Assembly: GCF_053078305.1 (NCBI RefSeq) | Contig: NZ_CP166879.1 | Direction: 5' to 3' (one strand) | Length of the DNA stretch: 64,000 bases | Shown: in pieces, positions 19,758-20,009 of the stretch | How positions within the stretch are numbered: position 1 is the stretch's first letter | Layout: the number at the start of each line of letters is the position of its first letter | Made by a program: the position numbers and the translations under genes | The notes under the pieces: model-generated | What the model was told of the DNA's origin: nothing | Seen by the model: the letters and a program-made list of their open reading frames with translations, nothing else | The model's database searches: none

Positions 19758-19833
19758 GGCCCTTTAGCTCAGTGGTGAGAGCGAGCGACTCATAATCGCC
19801 AGGTCGCTGGTTCAAATCCAGCAAGGGCCACCA
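19758..19833 (+). tRNA. tRNA with CAU anticodon (Met or lysidine-Ile2)
   Basis: Cloverleaf with anticodon loop cuCAUaa and 3' CCA. Confidence 0.75.
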
Positions 19834-19842
19834 TATCACATA

Positions 19843-19919
19843 CCGCCATTAGCTCATCGGGACAGAGCGTCAGCCTTCGAAGCTGGTTGCGCGGGGTTCG
19901 AGTCCTCGATGGCGGTCCA
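19843..19919 (+). tRNA. tRNA-Arg (UCG anticodon)
   Basis: Acceptor CCGCCAT/ATGGCGG, anticodon loop cuUCGaa, 3' CCA. Confidence 0.7.
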
Positions 19920-19932
19920 TTATCGGTATTCA

Positions 19933-20009
19933 GCGTTGTTAGCTCAGCCGGACAGAGCAATTGCCTTCTAAGCAATCGGTCACTGGTTCGAATCCAGTAC
20001 AACGCGCCA
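19933..20009 (+). tRNA. tRNA-Arg (UCU anticodon)
   Basis: Acceptor GCGTTGT/ACAACGC, anticodon loop cuUCUaa, 3' CCA. Confidence 0.75.

Follow-up and report, generated by a model that had tools for sequence, protein, structure and literature searches.

An Stx-type ileZ-argN-argO tRNA trio in a toxin-free, broken E. coli prophage

What do three tRNA genes in the late region of a lambdoid prophage read, and what are they for in a prophage that carries no stx genes? tRNA genes after the antiterminator gene Q recur in lambdoid phages, where they are read as a supplement for rare codons (PMC3636060; PMC7946995). A sequence-only reading of a 64,000-nucleotide stretch of DNA (contig NZ_CP166879.1 of assembly GCF_053078305.1; hereafter the window) placed such a triplet downstream of Q, likened it to the tRNA cluster of Stx-type lambdoid phages, and proposed that it serves codons rare in the host and marks the start of the cargo region. 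The tRNA cluster found here is correct but ordinary: it is the familiar Stx-type trio, in a toxin-free, broken E. coli prophage.

ARAGORN reports exactly three tRNA genes in the whole window, all on the plus strand, and the Rfam covariance model RF00005 places them at the coordinates that ARAGORN gives, with scores of 72.5 (CAU), 53.4 (UCG) and 70.1 bits (UCU) against a gathering score of 29 bits and with E-values of 6e-14, 1e-8 and 3e-13, respectively; these values exclude chance. The coordinates and the anticodons agree with the triplet proposed from sequence alone (CAU, for which no amino acid was given, Arg-UCG and Arg-UCU, at 19758-20009), and the scanner check suggested for the cloverleaves, run with ARAGORN, accepted all three and rejected none. 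The genes are as follows.

19758-19833, plus strand: ileZ, tRNA-Ile2, anticodon CAU, predicted to read AUA (ARAGORN, RF00005 and alignment to K-12)
19843-19919, plus strand: argN, tRNA-Arg, anticodon UCG, predicted to read CGA and probably CGG
19933-20009, plus strand: argO, tRNA-Arg, anticodon UCU, predicted to read AGA and, less well, AGG

The cluster measures 252 bp (19758-20009), with spacers of 9 nt and then 13 nt, and each gene encodes its 3′ CCA. In an explicit pair check on the standard cloverleaf, the stem pairs of the trio are all standard with the sole exception of A27.C43 in ileZ. Minimum-free-energy folding of each tRNA returned no cloverleaf (weak z-scores of -4.0, -1.2 and -2.0), as is usual for unmodified tRNA sequences, and these folds are hence uninformative. 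The possibility that the tRNA genes serve as attachment sites of an integrative element was rejected because their 3′ ends are intact and no integrase adjoins them; the integrases nearest to the cluster lie at 1447-2721 and 32299-33540.

Comparison with phage records confirms the proposed likeness to the Stx-type cluster. The trio corresponds to ileZ-argN-argO by homology over all three genes, by gene order and by the anticodons CAU, UCG and UCU; it is 96-97% identical to the cluster of 933W (AF125520), VT2-Sakai, Stx2a_WGPS2 (AP012537) and over 200 further records of Stx phages, and a 100% identical triplet is present in E. coli 2012EL-2448, directly upstream of stx2b. A 481-bp stretch that includes the cluster has matches at 95-98% identity in 292 phage records, most of them from Stx2-converting phages. 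In 933W, VT2-Sakai and WGPS2, the gene trio, its order, the spacers, the putative promoter pT and the downstream terminator are as in the window, ileZ is 100% identical to the window copy, and the STnc100 sRNA and nanS-p follow further downstream, again as in the window. However, these Stx2 phages carry stx2AB after the tRNAs, whereas the window prophage has a TerB-family gene and a DUF3927 gene instead. Moreover, the Q of 933W differs from the DUF1133-type Q allele of the window, and the 933W argN has C27-G43 where the window argN has U27.G43. At position 37 of argO (window 19969), the window, WGPS2 and E. coli prophages have A while 933W has G (L001 ~3268), an exchange that would be expected from sequence to alter the modification at position 37.

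The same arrangement is found outside Stx phages. In the stx-negative prophages of JNEC-KY202 and IBS28, the order tRNA-TerB-DUF3927-IraM-esterase is that of the window, collinear over 18179-24527 at ~97% identity; prophages of this type have the trio annotated as tRNA-Ile, tRNA-Arg and tRNA-Arg, but the antiterminator gene upstream differs from that of the window, and iraM, an intact ORF in the window, is frameshifted in JNEC-KY202. Other lambdoid tRNA sets after Q (SfI, Sf6, ST64T, phage 21 and a prophage of E. coli GPEC1165) occupy the same slot between Q and the lysis cassette and are given the same role (PMC3636060), with anticodon sets unlike that of the window (SfI has Asn and Thr; the GPEC1165 prophage has Ile, Lys, Thr and Gly). 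Counting a genome as positive when at least 80% of the 252-bp cluster is present, 2578 of 5426 complete E. coli genomes (about half) carry the cluster, which can be found in as many as 13 places in a single genome, and PGAP labels the trio in E. coli genomes as tRNA-Ile, tRNA-Arg and tRNA-Arg. With such a distribution, the importance of the present copy beyond correct annotation is small. Within the set of papers available to the search, ileZ, with or without the names argN and argO, matched none; the cluster itself is already known, having been described since the first Stx2 phage sequences.

As to the position of the tRNAs relative to Q, they do lie downstream of it as proposed, but they are not adjacent: 1.66 kb with a small ORF, terminators and a methylase gene separate them. 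The features in and before this interval, and up to the end of the tRNA unit, are listed below.

16104-17153: DUF968 gene, upstream of RusA
17166-17525: RusA gene, immediately before the Q-like gene
17522-18094, plus strand: Q-like antiterminator of the DUF1133 type (Pfam DUF1133, 345.9 bits; Phage_antitermQ, 32.3 bits, cut-off 26 bits)
18167-18187, plus strand: hairpin CCACC-GGAA-GGTGG followed by T7, read from the sequence
18311-18508: small ORF
18495-18520, plus strand: second intrinsic-terminator-like site, a 7-pair stem and then a T run, at the end of the small ORF
18659-19717, plus strand: N6/N4 DNA methyltransferase (Pfam N6_N4_Mtase, 151 bits), directly upstream of the tRNAs
19720-19748, plus strand: putative promoter pT (TTGCAG, 17 nt, TATTAT), ending 9 nt before ileZ
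20023-20046, plus strand: intrinsic terminator after argO, GGCTCGC-TTTT-GCGGGCC followed by T6 (terminator scan)

The flanking genes place the tRNAs in the late region, with the Q-like gene on one side and the esterase (21647-23629) and lysozyme (25554-26087) genes on the other. The methyltransferase gene precedes the tRNAs directly in WGPS2-type phages, Stx2a_WGPS2 among them, and likewise precedes them in several E. coli prophages. We infer a late promoter in 18077-18110, and the hairpin at 18167-18187 would then be the first, tR′-like terminator after it. Prophages that have another Q allele become homologous to the window from 18179 onward, which is consistent with a Q-specific late promoter within the ~85 bp directly after Q. 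The putative pT starts right after the methylase stop codon and is the base-for-base counterpart of the 933W feature 'pT; putative tRNA promoter'; it is conserved in all four aligned loci save for one spacer base and fits 8 of 12 consensus positions. A sigma-70 scan, in which pT scored under the threshold, reported neither pT nor any late promoter after Q, so that both promoter assignments rest on the 933W annotation and on reading of the sequence. The terminator that corresponds to 20023-20046 is annotated in the 933W record, upstream of stx.

Downstream of this terminator, the window contains the following features.

20179-20610, plus strand: TerB-family gene (Pfam TerB, 61.3 bits), first gene in the stx2AB slot; homologue named 'tellurite resistance TerB family protein' by PGAP
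20607-20771, plus strand: DUF3927 small membrane-protein gene (Pfam DUF3927, 59.5 bits), second gene of the cassette
20837-21049, plus strand: STnc100 sRNA with its own terminator (Rfam RF02076, 140.9 bits)
21073-21408, minus strand: IraM-like anti-adapter gene, from PGAP annotation of homologues; no Pfam match
21647-23629, plus strand: NanS-p-like sialate O-acetylesterase (Pfam DUF1737-SASA-DUF6645)

By local BLAST, the segment 18179-20057, with the methylase, tRNAs and terminator, matches Stx2 prophages (97.6% identity to the stx2b prophage); the segment 20058-20803 has no match to Stx2 prophages and stands in place of stx2AB; and homology resumes at ~20804, at STnc100. This upholds the proposed place of the tRNAs as the marker of where the cargo begins, homology to Stx2 phages ending at 20057 and TerB and DUF3927 filling the stx2AB slot. 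STnc100 is also found just 3′ of stx2B, both in 933W (Rfam score 207.7 bits) and in the stx2b prophage (183 bits). The esterase shares 98% identity with the gene that comes after stx2b in 2012EL-2448; an esterase of the nanS-p type is the gene after stx in Stx phages, and in the window the lysis genes come next. The stx2AB segments of 933W and of the stx2b prophage gave no local BLAST match between 17 and 25 kb of the window and, having neither stxA nor stxB, the prophage is therefore an stx-negative relative and not an Stx phage. In other genomes, the tRNAs are followed by DUF3927 and IraM genes, by DUF3927 and TolA-like genes, or by nothing before the holin gene. The locus cleanly marks out the stx2AB position as a swappable slot, bordered on the left by the tRNA-terminator block and on the right by the STnc100 sRNA, and these borders are helpful for reading stx-negative relatives of Stx prophages.

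Several smaller observations concern the same region. STnc100 lies at L001 4714-4919 in the 933W locus and at L009 5167-5375 in a second comparison locus, and the gene that follows it is the AsxR sRNA on the opposite strand in 933W and the IraM-like gene in the window. The ribosome-binding region of TerB (CCCAAAGGAAC, window 20160-20181) resembles that of stx2A (CCAAAAGGAAC, 933W L001 ~3385-3400), the two genes being unrelated, and the window has ~66 extra bases relative to 933W between the terminator and the TerB ribosome-binding motif. This likeness may be due to chance or may be a remnant of a recombination junction.

To read the trio against codon demand, the cognate codons AUA, AGA, AGG, CGA and CGG were counted together, per 1000 codons, with the following results.

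36 annotated K-12 genes: 12.3
prophage early genes: 47.3
prophage late genes (18.6-32.2 kb): 34.2
four cargo genes (TerB, DUF3927, iraM-like and nanS-p-like): 24.8
stx2AB of 933W: 68.6

With the 36 K-12 genes (and not the actual host genome) as baseline and mechanical ORF calls as prophage sets, the five codons are 2.8-3.8 times commoner in prophage genes than in the K-12 sample, and AGA and AGG together have an odds ratio of 8.7-14.8 (p as low as 3e-31). The codons read by the trio are thus rare on the K-12 side, as had been proposed, and the comparison suggested for the late genes comes out in the same direction (34.2 against 12.3). The enrichment is higher in the early genes than in the late genes that are co-transcribed with the tRNAs, and the local cargo calls for these codons far less than stx2AB does. 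Supplementation is therefore plausible, but it does not appear tuned specifically to the downstream genes.

Altogether, these results make it very likely that the cluster is the ileZ-argN-argO operon of Stx2-type lambdoid phages, carried here in an stx-negative lambdoid prophage beside rspB, and that it acts in rare-codon supplementation and as a left homology anchor. In our model, the tRNA unit has its own promoter, pT, which would give weak transcription in the lysogen; after induction, Q-modified RNA polymerase would read through the upstream terminators and transcribe the unit strongly. The precursor would be trimmed by host RNases; host TilS would turn C34 of ileZ into lysidine, enabling charging by IleRS and decoding of AUA; and argN and argO would be charged by ArgRS. 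CGA is read in K-12 through inosine wobble, and the K-12 set of tRNA-Arg genes (ACG four times, CCG, UCU and CCU, six of these seven genes being observed in this analysis) includes no UCG anticodon, so that argN has no counterpart there. argN would thus provide a Watson-Crick reader for CGA through an anticodon that K-12 lacks, while argO would add to the supply of tRNA for AGA and AGG, for which the argU tRNA is scarce. As a result, AT-rich, rare-codon-rich phage and cargo genes would be translated faster and with fewer errors. At the same time, the highly conserved block of tRNAs and terminator is the left homology anchor for the swapping of cargo cassettes.

The anchor role could also be taken further: the tRNAs might be passengers with little translational role, whose main value lies in the homology block that they offer for cassette swaps. 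In line with this, one genome has before stx2b the identical triplet that the window has before TerB, the breakpoints at 20057 and 20804 are sharp, and 2578 of 5426 genomes with up to 13 copies each represent abundant recombination partners. We nevertheless regard the passenger explanation as improbable on account of how the genes have been kept. ileZ is 100% identical among four loci whose flanks share only 78-93%, which is unlike neutral DNA and points to purifying selection rather than decay. Similarly, argO differs from argU of K-12 at 21 positions, and yet all eight stem pairs that have changed did so in a compensatory manner and none is broken, which argues for selection on structure; intact stem pairs and compensatory changes of this kind are not expected of neutral DNA. 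The tRNAs could have a translational role and an anchor role at once, and the explanation that we favor includes the latter.

The identity set of E. coli ArgRS consists of A20, C35 and U or G at position 36, with A or G at position 73 as a minor element. argN (D loop AUCGGGACA, anticodon UCG) and argO (D loop AGCCGGACA, anticodon UCU) both have A20 and C35, and with U36 or G36 the major set is present in both. argO retains A20, C35, U36 and G73 of argU and has an identical anticodon loop. In argN, position 73 is U in all four loci compared, an unusual discriminator. The codon notes of the 933W record are 'CGH; CGG?' for argN and 'AGA; AGG?' for argO. Some otherwise similar clusters retain ileZ and argO and are missing argN. 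With its U73, the lowest score of the trio (53.4 bits) and its absence from some clusters, argN may be charged poorly or not be needed. Certain E. coli prophages have only ~100 nt between ileZ and argO in which argN is no longer recognized as a tRNA (L010 3577-3676; L011 3577-3681).

Colicin D targets tRNA-Arg, and there are published cases of counter-defence tRNAs in other phages. Given that two of the three tRNAs are arginine acceptors, the trio might be thought of as spares that replace host tRNA-Arg and tRNA-Ile cut by anticodon nucleases during infection or bacterial competition. We consider this highly improbable, because ileZ and argO have the same anticodon loops as host ileX and argU, so that the loop changes to be expected of nuclease-resistant variants are not seen, and because the set fits the rare-codon demand well.

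ileZ is identical to K-12 ileX at 68 of 76 positions (89%), including the anticodon and the anticodon loop, and its identity to metT and metU is much lower; it keeps the TilS and IleRS determinants of ileX, and its eight differences include a change from G27.U43 in ileX to the A27.C43 mismatch. It carries C4-G69, C5-G68 and A73, and C4-G69 and C5-G68 are the pairs required by E. coli TilS for conversion of C34 to lysidine (PMC1635315). Moreover, identical copies of ileZ are labeled tRNA-Ile by PGAP, and the curated 933W record gives 'codon recognized: AUA'. From the likeness to ileX and from these two pairs, the CAU gene is taken as an ileX-type tRNA-Ile2 and a reader of AUA, with lysidine as its predicted modification. 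There is next to no chance that it is instead an elongator tRNA-Met, so that the cluster would supply Met, Arg and Arg: ARAGORN does label it tRNA-Met, as do many Stx phage records and one paper (PMC7946995), but tRNA-finding programs cannot by themselves identify CAU tRNAs of the lysidine class (PMC1635315), tRNA-Met has U4-A69 and A5-U68 in metT and metU, and the gene is far from both in sequence, in keeping with the tRNA-Ile calls of PGAP and the curated record. The label of the CAU gene should therefore be corrected from tRNA-Met to tRNA-Ile2. The mismatch A27.C43 (window 19784/19800), at the top of the ileZ anticodon stem, is invariant across every phage copy examined.

The carrier of the operon is itself disrupted. 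The window begins in host rspA/rspB and continues with the lambdoid prophage, which comprises, from left to right, an integrase, an exonuclease, DicF, isrK and C4 RNAs, repressor and replication genes, hok/sok and a RelE-type toxin-antitoxin pair, followed by DUF968, RusA and the Q-like antiterminator. Features of the prophage and of the elements inserted in it are listed here.

1447-2721, minus strand: lambdoid integrase
14216-14541 and 14644-15325: two toxin-antitoxin loci of the nin region
32299-33540: PICI integrase
48471-48953: minor tail gene Z, truncated at position 157 of the 190-position Pfam profile
49246-49764, minus strand: Mu-like repressor-like gene
50184-52292: MuA
52364-53296: MuB

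The lambda-family portal gene is split: the part at 31278-32150 covers positions 2-241 of the Pfam profile, the part at 43936-44709 covers positions 238-354, and the two are separated by an 11.8-kb insert (~32150-43930) that is co-oriented with the portal gene and carries genes for an integrase, an AlpA/excisionase-like protein, Bro-N, Ash, a primase-helicase, SSB, a capsid E homologue, a decoration protein and a Nu1-like small terminase (terS), together with isrK and C4 RNAs. Doubled GTGTATTGCA motifs are present at each end of the insert, a short core, AAAGCCAT, is shared by both junctions, and the same portal/integrase junction recurs in other E. coli genomes. We considered the insert as a potentially new element and rejected this: it matches the published class of helper-embedded PICIs with the site 'B:Phage_portal_2:241' and is thus not new (PMC10111431). 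Further right, a Mu-like prophage with Mu-type late genes is inserted in gene Z and runs from ~48950 to the end of the window at 64000; repeated TTTGATAC motifs at 48959-49115 look like putative transposase-binding sites. With the portal gene split and gene Z truncated, the lambdoid prophage is very probably unable to make virions. The tRNA operon within it is intact, and the tRNAs thus persist undamaged in a prophage that is very probably beyond virion production. Any present benefit of the tRNAs would therefore go to the host or to co-resident elements and not to the prophage's own lytic growth.

This makes it possible to speculate, although we doubt that it is so, that the operon runs from its own promoter in the lysogen and thereby licenses translation of the very rare-codon-rich mobility genes of co-resident elements, three of which are in the window: the lambdoid integrase, the integrase of the PICI in the portal gene and the Mu-like prophage. 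The five codons amount to 66 per 1000 in the lambdoid integrase and to 80 per 1000 in the PICI integrase, which has 14 AUA and 17 AGA or AGG among its 413 codons. If true, a 'grounded' prophage would be kept partly since its tRNAs tune the mobility of other elements.

Finally, we note three features of the lambdoid prophage and its insert. Of the toxin-antitoxin loci in the nin region, one is hok/sok (sok RNA, 109.7 bits), and the other, on the minus strand, pairs a RelE-family toxin with an HTH antitoxin. The lysis cassette contains another N6/N4 DNA methyltransferase gene (26580-27515), flanked by the lysozyme gene and the Rz-like gene. The isrK and C4 RNAs occur twice, once at 6689-7176 on the minus strand, with DicF in the lambdoid leftward operon by a Rha/Ash gene, and once at 35806-35991 on the plus strand, inside the embedded PICI by its Ash-family gene.
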